From a virus (Duplodnaviria > Heunggongvirae > Uroviricota > Caudoviricetes), in the IMG/VR virus record IMGVR_UViG_2737471839_000017, positions 1 through 26,854 of that record: a stretch of 26,854 bases of DNA; one strand, written 5' to 3'. Positions 11,652-21,626 of the stretch are shown here, piece after piece. The position numbers and the translations under genes were made by a program. How positions within the stretch are numbered: position 1 is the first letter of the stretch; the number at the start of each line of letters is the position of its first letter. Under the pieces are notes generated by a model that worked only from the letters and a program-made list of their open reading frames with translations, ran no database searches and had not been told where the DNA came from.

Positions 11652-11688
11652 TTGACATTTAACGCACGAATTATTACCTTTCAGGTAA
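11652..11688 (+). promoter_or_regulatory. Candidate promoter (TTGACA at 11652-11657) with overlapping operator palindrome TTACCTTTCAGGTAA (11674-11688)
   Basis: Perfect -35 hexamer; weak -10 (TACCTT); operator-family site lies over the -10/+1 region. Confidence 0.3.
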
Positions 11689-12010: not shown

Positions 12011-12087
12011 GTGGCATTAGCTCAGTTGGACAGAGCAACCGCCTTCTAAGCGGTTGGTCGCAGGTTCGAATCCTGCATGCCACGCCA
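12011..12087 (+). tRNA. tRNA-Arg (anticodon UCU), 77 nt including CCA
   Basis: Hand-folded cloverleaf: acceptor GTGGCAT/ATGCCAC, D stem GCTC/GAGC, anticodon stem ACCGC/GCGGT with loop CTTCTAA, T stem GCAGG/CCTGC with TTCGAAT loop, CCA end. Confidence 0.85.
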
Positions 12088-14223: not shown

Positions 14224-14816
14224 TGATTACCATCCTGACGTTCTTTGAGTCGCTTCCTGGCTGCTGCTATGCGATCAGCAATTGTCACATTCACATTAAC
14301 ATCCAGACGTTCTTTGAACGCGTTGACATCAACATGCTTACCAATCAGCTCAAGGTTCTTCACCTTGTCAGGCCATTTAATTTTTTTGAGGATTGTCTCT
14401 ATCGAATCCTCGTTCATGTTCATGATGGTCGACGACAGATCAAAGCCACTAAGCGTAGTGCGCCAGATTTTCGGCCACTCGCGGATTGGCTTAAGGCTCC
14501 CATCGTCGTTGAGGATATCAATCACGTCCATCTGGTCGATCTCCACCAGGCGCATGAGAACGTAATCAGCACTGACGCGCATTCGTTTGTTGCGCTCCTC
14601 CATCAACTCGGCAATCCGTTTTTGAATGCGTTCATCGCGCATCATGACACTGGCTTTAACTGCCGCTGTATTTGGGGAAAATCCTGCGTTAATCGCTGCC
14701 TGAGTCTGGTTTTCAGGCGTTTTGATGTATGACTGGCAATAAGCCTCCTGCATTGCTGTTAGTGGCTTAAATTGCGTTGATTTGCGTTTATAGGTTTTAG
14801 GTTCAGCAGGCATCAT
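14220..14816 (-). CDS. Terminase small subunit (start probably ATG 14816 or 14813; listed ORF extends to 14894 through a terminator hairpin)
   Basis: Immediately upstream of and coupled to the large subunit; N-terminal region 'AMQEAYCQSYIKTPENQTQAAINAGFSPNTAAVKASVMM' matches the small-terminase pattern from memory. Confidence 0.65.
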   Translation of the reverse strand: MMPAEPKTYKRKSTQFKPLTAMQEAYCQSYIKTPENQTQAAINAGFSPNTAAVKASVMMRDERIQKRIAELMEERNKRMRVSADYVLMRLVEIDQMDVIDILNDDGSLKPIREWPKIWRTTLSGFDLSSTIMNMNEDSIETILKKIKWPDKVKNLELIGKHVDVNAFKERLDVNVNVTIADRIAAARKRLKERQDGNQ

Positions 14817-14856
14817 AACCACCGTGGTAATAGTTACCGTTGTGGTAATAGTACCA

Positions 14857-14885
14857 TGCAAAATAAAGCCGCCATAGTTGGCGGC
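14857..14885 (-). terminator. Intrinsic terminator upstream of the terminase genes (tR'-like candidate)
   Basis: On the minus strand GCCGCC-aactat-GGCGGC followed by TTTATTTTG. Confidence 0.5.
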
Positions 14886-14934
14886 AGTATTCAAAACCCA
14901 TCAAATTCATCATGCATAATCTACTCGTGACATG

Positions 14935-15273
14935 TCACACTATTAATTTCGTTTCATGCCAGCCTTTAGTCACCCAGCATTGCGAGTCACCATTACACGG
15001 GCATGAATTAACTGGAACTCTCTCGCCGCACTTACCGCAACGTTTTCCACTGATCGATTTTATACGCCCGTGCACGCGTGCATCATCCTGGCGGATCAGT
15101 AACGCAATATACTCACCAAATTCGTAAGGCGCACGCCCTGGGCGACGCGTGGCACAGTTACGCTCCAGCATTTCAATTTCCTGAGCATCAAGCACAATCT
15201 CCAGCTTACGCACACCAGATGCAGCTTGTCTGGCTCTCTGAGCGGCTTTGCGTTCTGCTGCGGATTTAGCCAT
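14935..15273 (-). CDS. Cys-rich small protein, late-gene regulator (Q-like antiterminator) candidate; start ATG 15273 with RBS GGAGAGAAGG (alternative 15288)
   Basis: C-terminal CGKCG...CPC cluster suggests a zinc-binding domain; last gene before a terminator and the terminase genes. Function is inferred from position. Confidence 0.4.
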   Translation of the reverse strand: MAKSAAERKAAQRARQAASGVRKLEIVLDAQEIEMLERNCATRRPGRAPYEFGEYIALLIRQDDARVHGRIKSISGKRCGKCGERVPVNSCPCNGDSQCWVTKGWHETKLIV

Positions 15274-15503
15274 CAACCTTCTCTCCATGCCTGGTTTCTG
15301 GTTTTAAGTCCATTGCGCTTGGCATTTCTCTGAATCCGTTTCAGTTCTTCCCTGGACTGCTCTGGAGTTATTTCTCCTCTCATAACTCGTTCAACAAGAC
15401 TCCTTCTAACTTCCATACTGTCAGCGATAAGACCTTGTTCTTCTAGCTTCTCGATATTCACGCGCTTATCAAGGCGAGCATCCCAACTTGAGCGTCTCAT
15501 CAT
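15273..15503 (-). CDS. Hypothetical small basic protein (76 aa)
   Basis: Strong RBS AGGAGG 5-6 nt upstream; ATGA coupling downstream. Confidence 0.5.
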   Translation of the reverse strand: MMRRSSWDARLDKRVNIEKLEEQGLIADSMEVRRSLVERVMRGEITPEQSREELKRIQRNAKRNGLKTRNQAWREG

Positions 15504-16059
15504 TCATCCTCCTGCTGTAATGCTGCAACCATGGCTTTGGTTTCAGCGATTAGATTTCGTGGTAACTGGCTACCCGCTTTTAGCATGCCTATCCCAAACA
15601 CCAGCCAGCGCTGCAGCATGTCCGCATAGCCATCCGGAGTTACCGGAGAGTTGCCGGGTTCTTTATGTGCAAGCGAGGCTCACCATCTTTTGGCTCAGGC
15701 CACTGGCGCTCCATGTTGATCTTCAATTTATCTTCCATAGCAACGGTAATTTCAGCATCGCTGATGCCAGCACGGCGCTGTGCATCCCACAACAGGAACT
15801 GCATATCAGCCCACTCGCTAAGATCGTCTGGTTCGGCTGCGGCTTCCAGAGCCTCTTTTGAGAGGTGTTTCAGTGGACCAATGGGGCCAACGCAGCCAAA
15901 TGTGGAGTCAGACCATTTGGCATGCTCGTGGCGAATCTGTTCGCGTTCCAGTAATGCCAGTGCAATTCGTGCCAGTTCCATTTGTTCGCCACGAGTAAGC
16001 CCGTTATCAAGCGGATTTTTAATGAATAATTCGATACGTTCTTTGGTTATAGTGCTCAT
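15500..16059 (-). pseudogene. DUF550-like gene apparently split by a +1 frameshift: frame A 15640-16059 (139 aa) continues in another frame 15500-15679 (59 codons)
   Basis: Second frame is open from 15679 to a TGA that overlaps the next gene's ATG; RBS AAGGAG before the ATG at 16059; the shift must lie within 15640-15679. DUF550 identity is recalled, not searched. Confidence 0.4.
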
Positions 16060-16060
16060 A

Positions 16061-16696
16061 TCACTCTCCTTTGATGCGAATGCCAGCGTCAGACATCATA
16101 TGCAGATACTCAACTGCATCCTGAACCCATTGACCGCCAATCCCGTAATAGCGATGCGTAATGATGTCGATAGTTACTAACGGGTCTTGTTCGATTAACT
16201 TCCGCAGAAACTCTTCCAGGTCACCAGTGCAGTGCTTGATGACAGGAGTTTTCCCGGGATGGCGAACAACAAGAAACTGATTTCCGACTTCACGGACTTC
16301 GTTGCTTTCCAGTTCTGCAATGCGCTTCTCTGCGGCTTCCAGCTCAACACGCAGCTTCCCTACCGTTAACGCAATATCCTCGTTCTCCTGGTCGCGGGAT
16401 TTGATGTATTGCTGGTTCCTTTCCAGCTCATCCAGCAGCGCCAAGACGGTAGCCGGATTGGCTGCGGCGATGAATTCAGCATTGGCCTGCTGTTCCATTT
16501 GGAAATCTTCATAGAAACCGCTTTCAGGATGCGCTCCTTCAATTCTGCAAATGGGAAGATATCCAACAACTTCACGATGAATTAGCGCATCACCAGCATC
16601 AAATCTCTCCTCTCCATATTCGAGCGTCCACACGCCACACGTTGCTTTTTCTGCTTTTTCACGCAGTGCCTGATAGTCAATTGTCATTCTCGCCAT
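16061..16696 (-). CDS. Ead/Ea22-like family protein candidate (start 16696 or 16687)
   Basis: N-terminal 'TIDYQALREKAEKATCGVWT' and central coiled-coil region resemble Ea22-like prophage proteins from memory. Confidence 0.5.
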   Translation of the reverse strand: MARMTIDYQALREKAEKATCGVWTLEYGEERFDAGDALIHREVVGYLPICRIEGAHPESGFYEDFQMEQQANAEFIAAANPATVLALLDELERNQQYIKSRDQENEDIALTVGKLRVELEAAEKRIAELESNEVREVGNQFLVVRHPGKTPVIKHCTGDLEEFLRKLIEQDPLVTIDIITHRYYGIGGQWVQDAVEYLHMMSDAGIRIKGE

Positions 16697-17328
16697 CCTT
16701 CACAGTTGTAATCACTACAGCCTTTAAAATCATATGGGTTGTACTGCCAGGTGATTTTTCCGCAATGCGGACAATTCCAACGCACCTTCCCGCTTCGCGA
16801 CTTCTTTCTTCTGTTCTGCTCTTTCAACCAGTCAGGCATGACCAAACCTGCGCCCTGAACCATTGTTCTGCGGTTAAAGTTATTGATATTGAACGTCCGG
16901 CGCTTTGCTGAATCAGCAATGGAAAATGGCAACCAAACTATTCCTGGTTCGTTTTTGTTGGCGACGCTAAAGATGGTCGCTTTACTGAAGTCATCTGTTG
17001 GCAATCCACCGTGTTGAAGCCAGTAAACATCGTTGCCGTTCCAGCTACCTTTTTTGTAGGCCACATACGCAGTGCAATCTGGCTCAATCAGGTTTTCTGT
17101 AGGGATGTACTGGCAATCAACGTGCCACACTGCCATTGCATCCACGCTATCAGCGCAAACAGGCTGATCGATATCTCGCCCACAATTCCAGGCTTTTTGG
17201 GCTTCTTCCAGCGTGTAAACATGAGCGCGATCGATATCAGAACTGTAACCATTGCCGTTATGGCAATGGAATGAAGCGTTATTGCCCACAGTTTCACGCG
17301 AGCACATCATGTAAAAACGGTTAGTCAC
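16684..17328 (-). CDS. Cys-rich hypothetical protein with C-terminal zinc-ribbon-like motif (214 aa; GTG start with RBS AGGAGG)
   Basis: C-terminal 'WNCPHCGKITWQYNPYDFKGCSDYNCEGW'; no recognised family. Confidence 0.5.
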   Translation of the reverse strand: MTNRFYMMCSRETVGNNASFHCHNGNGYSSDIDRAHVYTLEEAQKAWNCGRDIDQPVCADSVDAMAVWHVDCQYIPTENLIEPDCTAYVAYKKGSWNGNDVYWLQHGGLPTDDFSKATIFSVANKNEPGIVWLPFSIADSAKRRTFNINNFNRRTMVQGAGLVMPDWLKEQNRRKKSRSGKVRWNCPHCGKITWQYNPYDFKGCSDYNCEGWRE

Positions 17329-17951
17329 TGGTTGCCTCCTTTTCGAAGCTGGGCGGCGATACCTTCGAGAACGCCATCAGAGAATGAGCGGTCAAAATCG
17401 CCTTCCGGCGCATTAGCCATAAACTCAGTAGAGGTAAGAATCATCCGGGCAATATCCGCGGCGTTCTTCGCAGTATCATCAATAAAACCAGCTTCCCAGG
17501 CAGCCAGCATTCTGTTCGCCACAAAATAAGCTCCTTCCTTGCGTGCTTTAGTCCTCACTTCAGCCAGAAAAGCATCGGTTGCTGGCGTTTCGCTGTGGTG
17601 TAGGGCATCGTTGATAATCATTGCAGCAACTCCGGCCTGCCCTGCATCCGTGACCGACACATGCTCAAGAGTTACAGCCATTGCGTGTTTCAGCCCAGCA
17701 TTCTCCGCAGCCAGCGCCGAAAACTTCTCGTGTGCCAACTTAACAGCCGAATCAGCCTGTTTAATTGACTCAATGGCTCTCTGGTGGTCTTCGGCCAGCG
17801 CATTAGCACGCACCAGTTGCACTTCCAGTTGCGTTGCCAAATCGCTGATCAGCTTTGCCACACTGCGCATATCAACGGCACCACATTCTGCTTTCAGTTC
17901 CGAAGCCATCTCATGCCCGGCGGAAACTAACCCTTTGATATTACTTTCCAT
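17325..17951 (-). CDS. Coiled-coil accessory protein, Ea22-like candidate (208 aa)
   Basis: RBS GAGGG 7 nt upstream; Ala-rich helical N-terminal half. Confidence 0.5.
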   Translation of the reverse strand: MESNIKGLVSAGHEMASELKAECGAVDMRSVAKLISDLATQLEVQLVRANALAEDHQRAIESIKQADSAVKLAHEKFSALAAENAGLKHAMAVTLEHVSVTDAGQAGVAAMIINDALHHSETPATDAFLAEVRTKARKEGAYFVANRMLAAWEAGFIDDTAKNAADIARMILTSTEFMANAPEGDFDRSFSDGVLEGIAAQLRKGGNQ

Positions 17952-18012
17952 CTTTACCCTCGCTTATCCACATAACTTATTGATTACATTGATAACTAAA
18001 AAGATCGTCGAT

Positions 18013-18357
18013 TCAGAACTCTTCGATGTTCCAGCCACCACCTGCTTTCTTTGGTTTAACCGTTACCCCGATGATTCGGAACGGATACTGATCTGCGGCG
18101 ACTTTGGTTTTCACCCTGGCGTCGTCGGTCCAGAAACCTTTCACTTCGTGCAGTTCCATCTCTCCGGTGGCGAGCATCACAGCGAAATCTGGCGTATAGA
18201 ACGTGTTGTCAGCTAACCGCAGCTTGATACCCTCGAATCGATACCAGGCGATTTCCCCTGCACGTTTACGCAGCTCAAGGTGCTGGCAATACGCAGATTC
18301 TGTTTTGTTCATCTGGCCTGTTTTGAGTCGACCAAGAGCCTGTATCTGTTTTCTCAT
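18013..18357 (-). CDS. DUF1064-like phage protein (114 aa)
   Basis: First gene after a promoter/operator region; family recalled, not searched. Confidence 0.5.
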   Translation of the reverse strand: MRKQIQALGRLKTGQMNKTESAYCQHLELRKRAGEIAWYRFEGIKLRLADNTFYTPDFAVMLATGEMELHEVKGFWTDDARVKTKVAADQYPFRIIGVTVKPKKAGGGWNIEEF

Positions 18358-18374
18358 GATTTACCCTTGAGGTA

Positions 18375-18403
18375 ATTAAAAACCACATAAGACACGAAAT
18401 CAA
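18375..18403 (-). promoter_or_regulatory. Sigma70-like promoter for the accessory operon (-35 TTGATT, 17-nt spacer, -10 TTTAAT on the minus strand), with operator sites at 18361-18375 and 18424-18438
   Basis: Hexamers read on the minus strand; the perfect palindrome TTACCCTTGAGGTAA overlaps the predicted start site and contains the RBS. Confidence 0.45.
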
Positions 18404-18474
18404 TAGAGTTTAGAATGTTTTGTTACCCAACAGGTAACTATCGAGGCGTAAAAAAATGCGCTATCGCGCTGGTA

Positions 18475-19275
18475 TTACTTGATAAATCCTGCCGCCTTTC
18501 CTCGCCTGTATTCCTCCATCAGCCACTGCGCCGGTGTTATTCCCCCAAGGGTGGCGGCGTTAGGCATGCACCCGAAACTTCGCCCTGGTGGATGGTAAAC
18601 GTCTCTCCCTGTGTCCGGAGGTGTACTCATGGGTTCTGGCTTTGCCTGTATGCTGATCACCGGATCGGGTATCTGCTGCCCGGAATCCACCTTTTTCGCC
18701 CAATCATCGAGCAGCCTGCGTGCGTGTTTCTCAACCTCAATCTCGCTAAGCTGGCGCTGATACATTGCACGGCGGGTATCACATACGACCCAGTACATAA
18801 CCGGATGTCGCCACGGGAATCTTTCGGGACCACCAGGATATAAACTTTTTTCCTTGCTGTACCGGTGAAACTCCGCCATCACATCGTCAATGGTGACGCC
18901 AAGAACCATCTTGCTGTCTTTGCACCACTTGATAAATTGCCCTGGAGACGGCCAGAACGGAGATTCACTGGCGCGGGCGTGGCGCATACCAGCAGAAACC
19001 TGTTCACGGGTTCGGATCCCCCCTTCGGCAAACGCAGCAATCCACTGCTGTTTTGCAGCAACTTCCTGCTCTGGCGTCTTCAGGTTGGTTACCACTGCCG
19101 CCGGAAACAGTTGTTTCAGCTGTTTAAAAAGGGCATCAACAAGCCTCTCTGCTGACATGTTCACCACATTGTCATTGTTGACGTACTGATGCTCATAACC
19201 TGACATGCGAGAAAGGGCTTCTCCGTCACGGTTTTGTATCGCGGTAAAAACGTTGTTCACAAGAAATCCTCCCAT
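18475..19275 (-). CDS. Replication protein P-like (helicase loader), 266 aa
   Basis: Segment '...FPAAVVTNLKTPEQEVAAKQQWIAAFAEGGIRTREQVSAGMRHARASESPFWPSPGQFIKWC' parallels lambda P '...FPASLANRDQNEVNEIRRQWVLAFRENGITTMEQVNAGMRVARRQNRPFLPSPGQFVAWC' from memory. Confidence 0.75.
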   Translation of the reverse strand: MGGFLVNNVFTAIQNRDGEALSRMSGYEHQYVNNDNVVNMSAERLVDALFKQLKQLFPAAVVTNLKTPEQEVAAKQQWIAAFAEGGIRTREQVSAGMRHARASESPFWPSPGQFIKWCKDSKMVLGVTIDDVMAEFHRYSKEKSLYPGGPERFPWRHPVMYWVVCDTRRAMYQRQLSEIEVEKHARRLLDDWAKKVDSGQQIPDPVISIQAKPEPMSTPPDTGRDVYHPPGRSFGCMPNAATLGGITPAQWLMEEYRRGKAAGFIK

Positions 19276-20156
19276 GCTTCAGGGCTGTTCCAGTGCGGAA
19301 CGTTGTTATCAGGTAATGTTGATTGCTTCTGTCTGCTAATCTGCAGCCGCCTTGCCAGCTTCTGCTCCCACTGTGCCTGATGGTATGCCTTACCCTCAGC
19401 CATCCAGTAAATTCTGAACTCTGCAAGTTCCTGTGCCGTTGGCAGACTGTCCAGGTAGATCCCCTGCAATGAGCTTTTCCGAAGAAAGTCATCTGATGGC
19501 TGCCATTGTTCATGCATGACAAATTTGCCTAATTGCCCTGGCCCACCTGGAGGAACAAAGTTATTCATCACGGCGTTGTTTGCGCCGGGGTCATGGGGCA
19601 CGGAATCCCCGATTTTTGTCCTGCTCTCCCTCTCTTGGTTAAATGACTGGTTATATGACTGGTTCTGGATCCCGTTTTTGGGATCATTCAACATCCCGTT
19701 TTTGGGATCATTCAATATCCCGTTTTTGGGATCATTCAATATCCCGTTTTTGGGATCATTCAATATCCCGTTTTTGGGTATATTCCCGTTTTCGGGAACA
19801 TTACCGTTTTCGGGAACATTACCGTTTTCGGGTTCATTACCGTTTTCGGGTTCATTACCCCCTTCCCGTTTGCCTTTAATGTTCCCTTTTTTGGTTATAT
19901 TAAGAGAGAAAACCCGTACTCTTTTCGTCGCCCCCTTTCTCTCTCCGGTATCTGAAATAAGCCCCATTTTCATGAGCGATATAAGCCCGGCCTGCACGGT
20001 TTTTTTATTCAGGCAAGTGTCTTTAACGAGGCGTTCTATGCTGGGGTAGCAGAGGTTATATTCATCGGCTCTGTCAGCCATCGAGAGCAGTATGAGCTTT
20101 AATGATGAGCTACCTGGATCTGTCTCCCAGGCCCAATCTGTTGCATGTCTGCTCAT
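19257..20156 (-). CDS. Replication initiator O-like protein (299 aa) carrying the iteron-encoded peptide repeats
   Basis: Directly upstream of and overlapping the P-like gene; internal DNA iterons; RBS GGAG 9 nt upstream. Confidence 0.7.
   Translation of the reverse strand: MSRHATDWAWETDPGSSSLKLILLSMADRADEYNLCYPSIERLVKDTCLNKKTVQAGLISLMKMGLISDTGERKGATKRVRVFSLNITKKGNIKGKREGGNEPENGNEPENGNVPENGNVPENGNIPKNGILNDPKNGILNDPKNGILNDPKNGMLNDPKNGIQNQSYNQSFNQERESRTKIGDSVPHDPGANNAVMNNFVPPGGPGQLGKFVMHEQWQPSDDFLRKSSLQGIYLDSLPTAQELAEFRIYWMAEGKAYHQAQWEQKLARRLQISRQKQSTLPDNNVPHWNSPEAWEDFL
19670..19910. repeat. Origin of replication candidate: about 4.5 copies of a 24-bp iteron (ATCCCGTTTTTGGGATCATTCAAY), 4 copies of an 18-bp iteron (CCGTTTTCGGGWWCATTA), then an AT-rich stretch
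   Basis: Tandem direct repeats read in sequence; each unit contains a short inverted repeat (ATCCC/GGGAT or CCCG/CGGG); located inside the O-like gene as in lambda ori. Confidence 0.65.
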
Positions 20157-20372: not shown

Positions 20373-20470
20373 GGTAAGCCCTGTTATTGGTATTGGGATT
20401 ACGGTTATTTTGTGCTGACACAAAAAAAAGATCAACCATATTTGGTTTTTTATTACCTTTGAGGTACGAA

Positions 20471-20501
20471 TAGATATGAAAAGACCGCCGGATGGCGGTC
20501 T
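20471..20501 (-). terminator. tR1-like terminator candidate downstream of the cro-like gene
   Basis: 8-bp stem AGACCGCC / GGCGGTCT with a 4-nt loop; moderately T-rich tail on the minus strand. Confidence 0.35.
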
Positions 20502-20522: not shown

Positions 20523-20753
20523 TCATGAGTAGAAGAAGTATGCCAGTTCTGCTTTTGAGCGCAGCCATTGTCTTGTTTTACAGGCTTTAAAAAGCCCATC
20601 CATCAATACCTTACCTGGCATTTTGCGCTTACCTGTTAAGTGAGTCTGGATATAGTGACTCGTCGTTCCGGCTTCCTGTGCGAAGGCTTCACGCTCATCC
20701 GGAGTAAGTGCAAGCCAGTGCTTTTTGAAATCGAAATGTCCGTTATCGCTCAT
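20523..20753 (-). CDS. Cro/CII-like small HTH regulator (76 aa)
   Basis: Divergent from the repressor candidate across an operator-rich intergenic region; HTH-like segment 'FAQEAGTTSHYIQTHLTGKR'. Confidence 0.5.
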   Translation of the reverse strand: MSDNGHFDFKKHWLALTPDEREAFAQEAGTTSHYIQTHLTGKRKMPGKVLMDGLFKACKTRQWLRSKAELAYFFYS

Positions 20754-20784: not shown

Positions 20785-20891
20785 AATATTCACCTATAAG
20801 GTAACAAAAATCAAGGATAGTTACCCATGAGGTGCATTTACCTGTTGGGTAATATTGCTTTAAATTGAATCATCTTCTGATTCAGATATGA
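20785..20891. promoter_or_regulatory. Divergent promoter/operator region (OR-like): minus-strand promoter -35 TTGATT / -10 GAATAT (20785-20813), plus-strand -10 candidates TAATAT (20849-20854) or TATGAG (20886-20891), operator sites at 20820-20834 (imperfect) and 20837-20851 (perfect)
   Basis: Hexamers and palindromes read in sequence; also a GGTAAC...GTTACC inverted pair at 20799-20824. Confidence 0.45.
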
Positions 20892-20907: not shown

Positions 20908-21492
20908 ATGAAAAGTATCCAGGACGTCCGCAGGCAAAATCTCAACGACTTGATCGACCGTGAATTCAATGGTGTTCAGACGCGGATGGCAGAAAAACTT
21001 GGAACTCAGGCAAATCTGGTAAACCGCTGGGCTCTTGGCAAGAAGGTTATCGGCGACCAGGTTGCGCGAAAAATTGAAGCTGTCGCCAATAAACCACGTA
21101 ACTGGCTTGATATCGATCGCTCGCTTTCTCAGGAGGGTTTTCAGCCTGTCGGACCAAGCGACATTGGTCAGCTGGCGGCTCACAACCTGGAACGCTGGAT
21201 GAGCGAAAGCCGCGACCTTTCAACACAGGGAAAACTTCACCGCGCATCCGGCGTCGCCCAGGTGACAATCAGCCGCCTGTTAAACAATGAGGTCAGCGTT
21301 TCCATTTCCACCCTGGAGAATGTTGCATCTGCATTCGGGCGTCACGGATATGAACTACTGATTCACCCGCACGACCCTGCAACTATCAACTATGACCGCT
21401 CGCGCTACGCATTGTTACCTGAAACCGAGAAAGCAAAGATCGAAAGTTACATTGAATTTGTCATCAACCAGAACGAAAAAAACAAACAATAA
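20908..21492 (+). CDS. Tandem-HTH (XRE-type) DNA-binding protein, maintenance-repressor candidate (194 aa)
   Basis: Two HTH-like segments ('QTRMAEKLGTQANLVNRW' and 'LHRASGVAQVTISRLLN'); no Shine-Dalgarno before the ATG; followed by a terminator; cI-equivalent position. Confidence 0.55.
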   Translation: MKSIQDVRRQNLNDLIDREFNGVQTRMAEKLGTQANLVNRWALGKKVIGDQVARKIEAVANKPRNWLDIDRSLSQEGFQPVGPSDIGQLAAHNLERWMSESRDLSTQGKLHRASGVAQVTISRLLNNEVSVSISTLENVASAFGRHGYELLIHPHDPATINYDRSRYALLPETEKAKIESYIEFVINQNEKNKQ

Positions 21493-21549: not shown

Positions 21550-21626
21550 TTACCTAATGGGTAATTTTTTTAACTCATATCTATTGACATCAAACCAAAT
21601 ACGCATAATTATTACCTAAACGGTAA
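21550..21626 (+). promoter_or_regulatory. PL-like early-left promoter (-35 TTGACA 21584-21589, -10 TAATTA/AATTAT near 21606-21612) flanked by operator sites at 21550-21564 and 21612-21626
   Basis: Consensus -35, 16-17 nt spacer, AT-rich -10; two perfect TTACC-N5-GGTAA palindromes. Confidence 0.5.

Follow-up and report, generated by a model that had tools for sequence, protein, structure and literature searches.

A probable second early operon behind predicted repressor operators in a Uetakevirus prophage of Escherichia coli

The stretch of DNA analysed here (26,854 nt; 'the window') is a Uetakevirus prophage of E. coli, of the epsilon15/phiV10-like type, and the region from 16061 to 18438 probably makes up the first half of the second rightward early operon in such a prophage (Table 1). 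The genes of this locus, and the promoter and operator sequences in front of them, are real, and the locus is of a kind already known. An earlier note, made from the sequence alone, had read the region as a repressor-gated cluster of four genes where anti-defence or host-takeover functions might be carried. All four open reading frames were confirmed, on the minus strand and across this span. The regulatory sequences, the assignment of two of the encoded proteins and the layout of related phages together point to a standard set of early genes with an exchangeable middle.

Layout of the locus in epsilon15/phiV10-type phages

The cluster had been thought to comprise four genes, whereas in fact the block runs on, tightly packed, into a gene encoding a DUF550 pyrophosphohydrolase-domain protein and two more. 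Start and stop codons overlap or abut from the Eae-like gene through the DUF550 gene, and the latter is placed in the same transcription unit because its start lies 1 nt after the stop codon of the Ea22 gene. Judging from this arrangement, the transcription unit probably continues past the four genes through all three of the others, as far as the terminator before terS.

The same layout is found in the gp43-gp49 operon of epsilon15, which encodes a RuvC-type resolvase, an Eae-like protein and an Ead/Ea22-like protein and ends with gp49, as well as in phiV10, SPC32H and Tyrion. In common with the epsilon15 operon, the locus in the window lies after the replication genes, is preceded by the same module of terminator, operator, promoter and operator with a 62-bp spacing, begins with a resolvase-type gene, has genes of the Eae and Ea22 types in its middle part and closes with the same regulator before terS; this regulator is the last operon gene in epsilon15, phiV10, TL-2011b and Tyrion alike. 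Among its differences from epsilon15 are the middle genes, which form another mosaic, composed of a gene like hkaG of HK620 and an Ea22 gene with the lambda-type C-terminal domain. None of 50,697 phage records and 5,426 E. coli genomes covers at least 80% of the 3.1 kb of this locus, and pieces of it are found at 94-98% identity. The sequence comparisons thus suggest that the genes between the nuclease and the last regulator are a mosaic, exchangeable accessory set. A scan of the window against Rfam detected one tRNA and nothing else, and NCBIfam and PADLOC searches with the cluster returned nothing except a chance-level coiled-coil match to PbeC.

Table 1. Features of the locus and of the repressor region, in window coordinates and ordered in the direction of transcription of the cluster; dashes within motifs separate arms, spacers and loops.
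Feature	Position	Strand	Remarks
PL-like promoter	21550..21626	+	TTGACA-17-AATTAT (21584-21612) between operators 21550-21564 and 21612-21626; listed by promoter scan
Repressor gene, Rep/gp38 type	20908..21492	+	two HTH domains; presumed to bind the TTACC-N5-GGTAA sites
OR-like operators	20790-20804 and 20838-20852		between repressor gene and cro-like gene
Terminator-like hairpin, weak	18450..18469	-	GCGC-GATA-GCGC, then A and T7; directly after P stop codon
Operator A (predicted)	18422..18438		GTTACC-CAACA-GGTAAC
Sigma-70-like promoter	18375..18403	-	TTGATT (18403..18398), 17-nt spacer, TTTAAT (18380..18375)
Operator B (predicted)	18360..18376		ATTACC-TCAAG-GGTAAA on minus strand, imperfect copy
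DUF1064 protein, 114 aa	18013..18357	-	Pfam PF06356, E 3.7e-7
Eae-like protein, 208 aa	17325..17951	-	helical, probably coiled-coil
HkaG-like Cys-rich protein, 214 aa	16684..17328	-	GTG start overlaps Eae-like stop codon; 10 Cys
Ea22 homologue, 211 aa	16061..16696	-	PF13935 (Ead_Ea22), E 1.8e-31; 110 bits against a cut-off of 27
DUF550 dATP/dGTP pyrophosphohydrolase-domain protein, 139 aa	15640..16059	-	PF04447, E 3.5e-42
76-aa protein	15273..15503	-	phrog_38343; same operon
117-aa regulator	14935..15288	-	epsilon15 gp49 / phiV10 p55 type; phrog_536 'transcriptional regulator'
Intrinsic terminator	14868..14885	-	probable operon end; then two operators (14834-14848, 14816-14830) abutting terS start

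Promoter, operators and the prophage repressor

The 117 bp separating the replication gene P from the DUF1064 gene contain, in order, a weak terminator, an operator, a -35 hexamer, 17 nt, a -10 hexamer, a second operator and the ATG. The terminator-like hairpin has an RNA folding energy of -8.4 kcal/mol (z -1.5), and its 4-bp stem falls under the five-pair rule of the terminator scan; it is kept in eight phages, and the phiV10 record calls it a putative rho-independent terminator. With so short a stem, most of the expression of the cluster could come from transcripts that start at the upstream promoter and read through.

The promoter had been described as good and as overlapped by a perfect operator palindrome. 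The first description is overstated, as only nine of twelve hexamer positions match and the -10 lacks the A at position 2, which is why the consensus promoter scan did not list it; both hexamers and the 17-nt spacing are nevertheless kept across eight related phages, including where the spacer sequence has otherwise diverged. The 6-bp arms of the palindrome, here operator A, are indeed perfect, but it is upstream of the -35, at a distance of 19 bp, and does not overlap the promoter. It is operator B that covers the last base of the -10, along with the likely start site and the Shine-Dalgarno sequence of the DUF1064 gene. The centres of the two operators are 62 bp apart, and this full module was present, always with the same distance, in all eight genomes examined, from Uetakeviruses of E. 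coli, Salmonella, Enterobacter and Klebsiella, although the repressors of these relatives share only 41-45% identity with that of the window. Furthermore, the region aligns without gaps to the PL-like region, with the operators, the CTATTGA block containing the -35 and the -10 all in register; hence the internal promoter appears to be a paralogue of the PL-like promoter, with the same geometry.

It is on these grounds that we infer promoter activity. That there is no working internal promoter, the cluster being expressed by read-through from the cro side only whilst the paired sites act as repressor roadblocks or as looping anchors to OR and OL, seems unlikely. This would account for the weak -10 and the silence of the scan, for the weakness of the terminator after P and for the operators directly before terS, which have no obvious promoter between them, and Rep binds DNA as a tetramer according to PMC9638917. 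It would not, however, be expected to preserve the hexamers and their spacing amid diverged sequence, or to reproduce exactly the geometry of a promoter which the scan did call, and the conserved T-tract hairpin suggests that the preceding unit is intended to stop at this hairpin.

Sequences matching TTACC-N5-GGTAA with at most one mismatch occur at ten sites in the window, against 0.33 expected, and none of 100 shuffled sequences reached ten. These well-matched sites (zero or one mismatch) fall in intergenic control regions: the OR-like and OL-like regions hold some of them, and others follow the cro terminator or precede the DUF1064 gene and terS, with one at 11674. The possibility that the palindrome before the DUF1064 gene had arisen as a hairpin by chance, or simply belonged to the terminator, was rejected, since the motif recurs ten times and is conserved. 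Four of the sites lie around the repressor gene, two on each side (at 20790 and 20838, and at 21550 and 21612). The product of this gene is homologous to the crystallised Rep of SPC32H (PDB 5D50; E 1.4e-41), and is 99.5% identical to the phiV10 repressor and 41.8% identical to that of epsilon15. In epsilon15, the motif likewise flanks the repressor gene and the sites are annotated as repressor sites; the RefSeq record (NC_004775) has a protein_bind feature, 'repressor', at 35906-35922, syntenic to operator A. The second epsilon15 operator, over the -10 and Shine-Dalgarno sequence, is absent from that annotation and was detected in the present analysis. No operator sequence is given in the ZX5 paper, and the assignment is based on the RefSeq annotation together with our own sequence analysis, by which the TTACC-N5-GGTAA sites are the predicted operators of the prophage repressor.

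The gating by a repressor that the earlier note proposed is consequently supported at the level of sequence, by the motif shared with the repressor-flanking sites, the SPC32H Rep homologue and the annotated epsilon15 site. It is not special to this cluster, as the same operators precede several other transcription units of the phage. A different protein, such as a Cro-like protein or the 117-aa regulator, might bind the sites, which would then serve temporal regulation rather than repressor gating; we regard this as quite improbable. Occupancy by the repressor is itself deduced from sequence, some of the sites lie ahead of late genes (before terS, and at 11674) and might there serve a late regulator, and Cro-type proteins as a rule bind the operators that the repressor binds. 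Yet the sites cluster either side of the repressor gene, in the manner of classical OR and OL, the curators of the epsilon15 record label them repressor sites, and the motif is co-conserved with the Rep family, which is found in only 36 phage records, all of epsilon15/phiV10-type phages.

Proteins encoded by the cluster

None of the four proteins had been considered assignable, but two of them can be placed. The DUF1064 protein matches phrog_190, 'Holliday junction resolvase', with an E value of 7e-43. Alignment by hhalign to T7 endonuclease I (gene 3; PDB 1M0D, 1FZR) gave a probability of 94.4% (E 9e-8) across residues 18-98 and placed the four catalytic residues of the T7 enzyme (E20, D55, E65 and K67) in register with E20, D57, E71 and K73 of the DUF1064 family, which are invariant or nearly so in 47 sequences. 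The likeness is visible at profile level only, and the T7 protein is the longer, at 149 aa against 114 aa; direct and profile searches of PDB sequences were marginal (E 0.22 and 0.05), with T7 endonuclease I as the top match. At the same position, epsilon15 and Tyrion have a RuvC-type resolvase, whilst phiV10 and SPC32H have DUF1064, as does the window. DUF1064 was earlier predicted to be a PD-(D/E)XK nuclease (PMC1189080). The case made here is built on the hhalign result and on synteny, from which we infer that DUF1064 is probably a T7-endonuclease-I-like nuclease of this superfamily, acting as a resolvase of Holliday junctions or branched DNA. Among the four genes, this is the one for which profile searches, the check on its own reading that the earlier note had named, returned a housekeeping role.

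The second assignable protein is that of 211 aa, a homologue of lambda Ea22. It is composed of an Ead/Ea22 N-terminal domain, a coiled coil and a lambda-type C-terminal domain; residues 131-211 share about 95% identity with PDB 8DSX, 'Protein ea22', and the identity to lambda Ea22 is 70% over 177 aa. Lambda Ea22, encoded in the exo-xis region, is a tetrameric coiled coil with a C-terminal domain solved by NMR (8DSX), and both parts are common to the two proteins; the window protein differs in its N-terminal 50 or so residues and has a coiled-coil stretch 18 residues shorter. The position of the gene also differs, being in a rightward operon behind the replication genes in the window and in the PL operon, between exo and xis, in lambda. 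A pro-lysogenic phenotype has been published for lambda Ea22, measured in lambda and in an Stx phage, where the gene is in the PL operon (PMC7093339, PMC10834534).

The description of two proteins as Ea22-like was half right, in that the 211-aa protein is a true homologue whilst the 208-aa protein is Eae-like, with shuffled modules in common with Ea22-type PHROGs. The latter had no Pfam match, PF13935 included, and its PHROG matches (phrog_14548, 614 and 368) are all without a functional label. A few homologues at 80-84% identity do carry PF13935; in the source records the homologues are labelled 'Eae-like', and a few 'ead/Ea22-like'. On this sequence evidence the protein is best called Eae-like, rather than a member of the Ead/Ea22 family. 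Identical copies (100%) are present in E. coli. The AF2 model is all-helical and of low confidence (pLDDT 62.7, pTM 0.33), and the family alignment has a hypervariable middle cassette between conserved ends, with a near-invariant C-terminal domain. Searches of the literature for Eae, Ead and hkaG retrieved unrelated matches only.

The statement that the 214-aa Cys-rich protein matches nothing held good in Pfam, NCBIfam and PADLOC, and its only match was to phrog_2457, the HK620 hkaG-like family. The model is confident (pLDDT 92.8), yet a fold search of the PDB found no match and one of BFVD only partial, uncharacterised ones; the protein is therefore predicted from the model to be an orphan fold, unlike any solved structure. 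It consists of an alpha/beta body of around 160 residues, a basic helix and a zinc-ribbon-like C-terminal motif, CxxC...C-x4-C, in which C186, C189 (CPxCG) and C204 are invariant, and C209 nearly so, in the HkaG-like alignment; the model has two short strands here, at 182-185 and 192-195, and Pfam zinc-ribbon models gave sub-threshold matches only. The family is widespread in Enterobacterales temperate phages and phage-plasmids, and has further members in Acinetobacter and Methyloprofundus. The HkaG-like and Ea22-like genes are found as a pair in the P1-like phage SJ46, at 95.7% identity. In Yersinia, Acinetobacter and Methyloprofundus prophages, the neighbours of the HkaG-like gene share no homologue with its neighbours in the window.

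It is doubtful that the locus is an anti-defence or host-takeover island, in which the Eae-like or HkaG-like protein, or both, or else Ea22, would counter host immunity or divert the machinery of the cell soon after derepression. In favour of this view, the genes in mid-operon are highly mosaic, the hypervariable Eae-like cassette might be the mark of an arms race, the HkaG-like protein has a basic helix and a zinc-ribbon-like end besides its predicted orphan fold, the gene pair recurs in SJ46, and expression would be early. But a mosaic structure is usual for any non-essential early genes of phages, other assignments exist for two of the four, none has homology to a characterised anti-defence protein, with Pfam, NCBIfam, PADLOC, PDB and BFVD all uninformative in this respect, and the distant HkaG-like loci have neither a conserved partner gene nor a defence-system neighbourhood. 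Similarly, there is a small chance, as far as the models indicate, that the HkaG-like family comprises structurally new early phage effectors whose target may be a defence system, or nucleic acid of the host or of a competitor, with the Eae-like protein and its cassette as a possible specificity-switching partner or parallel effector.

Proposed regulation and relation to other phages

In the favoured reading of a second early operon, transcription from the cro-side promoter would cross the replication genes and meet the weak terminator after P, and the internal sigma-70 promoter (18403..18375) would drive the DUF1064, Eae-like, HkaG-like, Ea22 and DUF550 genes, the 76-aa open reading frame and the 117-aa regulator, the unit stopping at the terminator (14885..14868) before terS. 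In a lysogen, the repressor would sit on the two operators bracketing the promoter, as at the PL-like promoter; as both would be occupied, the operon would be silent until the repressor was inactivated. The nuclease encoded by the first gene would then resolve branched replication and recombination intermediates, a housekeeping job, and the last gene would supply the conserved regulator. Between these would be expressed an accessory set including the lambda-type Ea22, which in lambda biases the decision towards lysogeny.

The nin region of lambda and the 'ea' genes of P22 and HK620 (eae, ead and hkaG) are likewise a non-essential mosaic of small early genes. These blocks occupy the same place, between replication and late functions, and include a junction resolvase, which in the lambda nin region is Rap/RusA; hkaG, Eae and Ead are of the same protein families as those in the window. 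They differ in their control, as the block in the window has its own predicted repressor-controlled promoter whereas the nin region depends on N antitermination from PR, and in orientation, since the 'ea'-type genes of the window are in a rightward operon and those of lambda, as the analysis showed, in a leftward one, as are those of P22 and HK620.

Hence the locus does not deserve to be marked out as an unusual island, as it is the second early operon that epsilon15/phiV10-type prophages normally carry, and such prophages are common in E. coli. The main value of the analysis is this correction, and the remaining points are modest. The exchange of DUF1064 and RuvC-type genes at one fixed position provides a clean comparative argument, at the level of sequence, that the widespread DUF1064 family may be junction or branch resolvases. 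The HkaG-like protein, belonging to a widespread family and having a confidently predicted orphan fold, is a candidate for experiments. Finally, there appears to be a genus-wide, decentralised repressor regulon, in which one type of operator pair would gate several transcription units; this differs from the antitermination cascade of lambda, and is easy to test.

The putative promoter and operators ahead of the DUF1064 gene

All four open reading frames described in the earlier note were found, behind a 117-bp gap that separates the first, encoding a DUF1064 protein, from the lambda P-like replication gene. The promoter proposed in this gap, TTGATT-17-TTTAAT, matches the consensus at nine of 12 positions and was missing from the scan output because its -10 hexamer lacks an A at position 2. 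The palindrome said to overlap this promoter, GTTACC-N5-GGTAAC, is indeed perfect but lies clear of it, 19 bp upstream of the -35 hexamer. It is a predicted operator: a search of the window for TTACC-N5-GGTAA, permitting at most one mismatch, identified 10 sites against 0.33 expected, a number reached in no shuffle. The second site in the gap covers the last base of the -10 hexamer, along with the Shine-Dalgarno sequence and the position where transcription is expected to start.

Two further operator sites flank a scan-called promoter, TTGACA-17-AATTAT, in a PL-like cassette. This region and the internal one align with zero gaps, sharing the order operator, 19 nt, -35, 17 nt, -10 and a second operator beginning at the last -10 base; both -35 hexamers lie within a common CTATTGA block, and the operators are 62 bp apart, centre to centre, in each. 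The putative internal promoter is hence paralogous to the PL-like cassette of promoter and operators. The hairpin following the P gene (four GC pairs, -8.4 kcal/mol, z -1.5) is weak, and therefore some read-through from upstream is likely.

Features of the window, in order from the PL-like cassette towards the head genes
Feature	Position	Strand	Location
PL-like promoter	21584-21612		between its two operators
Operators	21550, 21612 (21550-21626)		just downstream of repressor gene
Repressor gene	20908-21492
Operators	20790, 20838 (20790-20852)		between repressor and cro-like genes
cro-like gene	20753..20523	-	first in order
Terminator	20501..20482	-	right behind cro-like gene
Operator	20453 (20453-20467)		3' of cro terminator
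87-aa ORF		-	between cro terminator and initiator gene
DnaT/O-like initiator	20156..19257	-
24-bp tandem units	19640-19880		within initiator gene
Lambda P-like helicase loader	19275..18475	-	followed by the four genes
Perfect palindrome	18422-18438		P-DUF1064 gap
Operators	18423, 18361		P-DUF1064 gap
Putative internal promoter	18403..18375	-	P-DUF1064 gap
Four-gene cluster	16061-18438	-
DUF550 dATP/dGTP pyrophosphohydrolase	16059..15640	-	after the four genes
76-aa ORF		-	between DUF550 and regulator genes
117-aa regulator	15288..14935	-
Palindrome GTGACATGTCAC with promoter-like site	14909-14945	-	immediately 3' of regulator stop codon
Terminator	14885..14868	-	between regulator and terS, terL
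Operators	14816, 14834 (14816-14848)		adjoin terS start
tRNA-Arg (anticodon TCT)	12011-12087	+	between terL and head genes
Operator	11674 (11674-11688)

Conservation of the module and a possible wider regulon

[quoted passage not shown] Its repressor shares 99.5% identity with the phiV10 one and has clear homology to SPC32H Rep (PDB 5D50, E 1.4e-41), which a later paper describes as a tetrameric binder of palindromic DNA (PMC9638917). The 3.1 kb around the cluster exhibits piecewise identity of 94-98% to phiV10, phiv142-3, ZX5, TL-2011b and many E. coli chromosomes, with none of 50,697 phage records and 5,426 E. coli genomes reaching 80% coverage of it.

The module is present in eight phages, including phiV10, phiv142-3, TL-2011b, epsilon15, SPC32H, Enterobacter phage Tyrion and Klebsiella phage BUCT711, always ahead of the gene next after the replication genes. 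In each it comprises a GCGC-N4-GCGC hairpin with a T7 tract, an operator, a -35 hexamer, a 17-nt spacer, a -10 hexamer, another operator and an ATG; all eight have their operators 62 bp apart, despite repressors only 41-45% identical to that of the window. In the RefSeq record of epsilon15, the syntenic position (35906-35922) already carries a 'repressor' protein-binding annotation, as do further sites ahead of terS, gp3 and the tail-fibre gene. The terminator is annotated in the phiV10 record. The cluster would form the front part of a repressor-controlled early operon, the predicted ends of which are fixed, with a resolvase gene first and the regulator gene last, and the middle of which would be an exchangeable accessory set.

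The operator motif also occurs in at least five other control regions of the window, including directly before terS and in the structural-gene region, and epsilon15 has a like pattern (15 sites against 0.61 expected). This distribution suggests that the repressor regulon is decentralised and unlike the antitermination cascade of lambda. A strong terminator lies between the cro-like and replication genes, and an N-like antiterminator was not identified.

This intrinsic terminator has an 8-bp stem with six GC pairs, and a one-mismatch operator lies next to it. Within the O-like initiator gene, the 24-bp tandem units translate into peptide repeats of the NGILNDPK type, which follow NGNxPE repeats, and are probably origin iterons; four of them (19679, 19703, 19727 and 19751) were listed by the scan as hairpin-plus-T sites. 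Behind the regulator gene, the perfect 12-bp palindrome overlaps a promoter-like site, GTGACA-18-CATGAT, with a strong terminator, two operators and then terS downstream. This promoter-then-terminator order resembles lambda PR'-tR', and the site may be where the 117-aa regulator acts. The tRNA-Arg gene, detected with Rfam at 73 bits and with ARAGORN as well, has a counterpart, tRNA-Arg(tct), at the equivalent position in phiv142-3.

Predicted functions of the encoded proteins

The first and fourth proteins match Pfam DUF1064 (E 3.7e-7) and Ead_Ea22 (E 1.8e-31) respectively; neither the second nor the third has a Pfam match. PDB sequence and profile searches with DUF1064 placed T7 endonuclease I on top, albeit at marginal E values of 0.22 and 0.05. 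A search of 1.8 billion representatives supplied 47 diverse homologues, and the profile built from them aligned with T7 endonuclease I at a probability of 94.4% (hhalign, E 9e-8), pairing the catalytic E20, D55, E65 and K67 with the invariant or near-invariant E20, D57, E71 and K73. The family is labelled 'Holliday junction resolvase' in PHROG 190, and DUF1064 has been predicted to be a PD-(D/E)XK nuclease (Feder and Bujnicki, 2005; PMC1189080). The strongest argument for a putative resolvase is non-orthologous displacement: the gene behind the module encodes a RuvC-type Holliday-junction resolvase in epsilon15 and Tyrion, and DUF1064 in the other six phages.

Across 177 residues, the fourth protein (211 aa) shares 70% identity with lambda Ea22, and its residues 131-211 share approximately 95% with the C-terminal domain of known structure (PDB 8DSX, E 3.5e-48). 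Lambda Ea22, a coiled-coil tetramer, favours lysogeny (PMC7093339, PMC10834534). Hence the earlier view that none of the four has an assignable function is wrong for DUF1064 and Ea22. The DUF550 domain, a stand-alone 139-aa gene in the window, is noted in phiV10 (L001, 2058-2756) on a protein annotated as 'ead/Ea22-like family', which suggests fusion of Ead/Ea22 N-terminal modules with varied C-terminal domains.

The 208-aa Eae-like protein has 100% identical counterparts in E. coli but no match in Pfam, NCBIfam or PDB, and matches only PHROGs of unknown function. These profiles reveal modules shuffled between it and its Ea22-type neighbour, phrog_250 joining an Eae N-terminus to an Ea22 body and phrog_368 an Ea22 N-terminus to an Eae C-terminus. 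The family alignment contains three alternative N-termini. A conserved coiled coil and a nearly invariant domain, made up of the last 85 residues, flank a hypervariable central cassette (approximately residues 90-121), for which variants differ completely in both sequence and length. AlphaFold gives an all-helical model of low confidence (pLDDT 62.7).

The Cys-rich HkaG-like protein (214 aa) has a sole family match, phrog_2457 (E 2e-118), and the matching gene in the IME10 record is labelled 'hkaG: unknown'. None of its 152 homologues (48-97% identity), from Enterobacterales, Yersinia, Acinetobacter and one Methyloprofundus genome, carries an annotation; the distant ones lie in early operons of unrelated prophages, with no conserved neighbour. 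Only C186, C189 and C204 of the ten cysteines are invariant, C9 and C209 being near-invariant, and Pfam zinc-ribbon matches to residues 181-209 are sub-threshold. A 1.4-kb block of HkaG-like and Ea22-like sequence (15939-17339) shares 95.7% DNA identity with the P1-like phage-plasmid SJ46 (L016, 3001-4455) and has matches at 460 places on plasmids in E. coli genomes, which implies recent exchange between podophage prophages and phage-plasmids.

An anti-defence role for the Eae-like and HkaG-like genes is possible, with no result of this analysis in its support; the HkaG-like family, with its predicted orphan fold, is the one item meriting experimental follow-up. The locus is already known in kind, whilst its gene mosaic is new. 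On the sequence evidence, the proposed repressor gating seems real; it is nothing peculiar to this cluster, as the genus appears to control several transcription units in this way.
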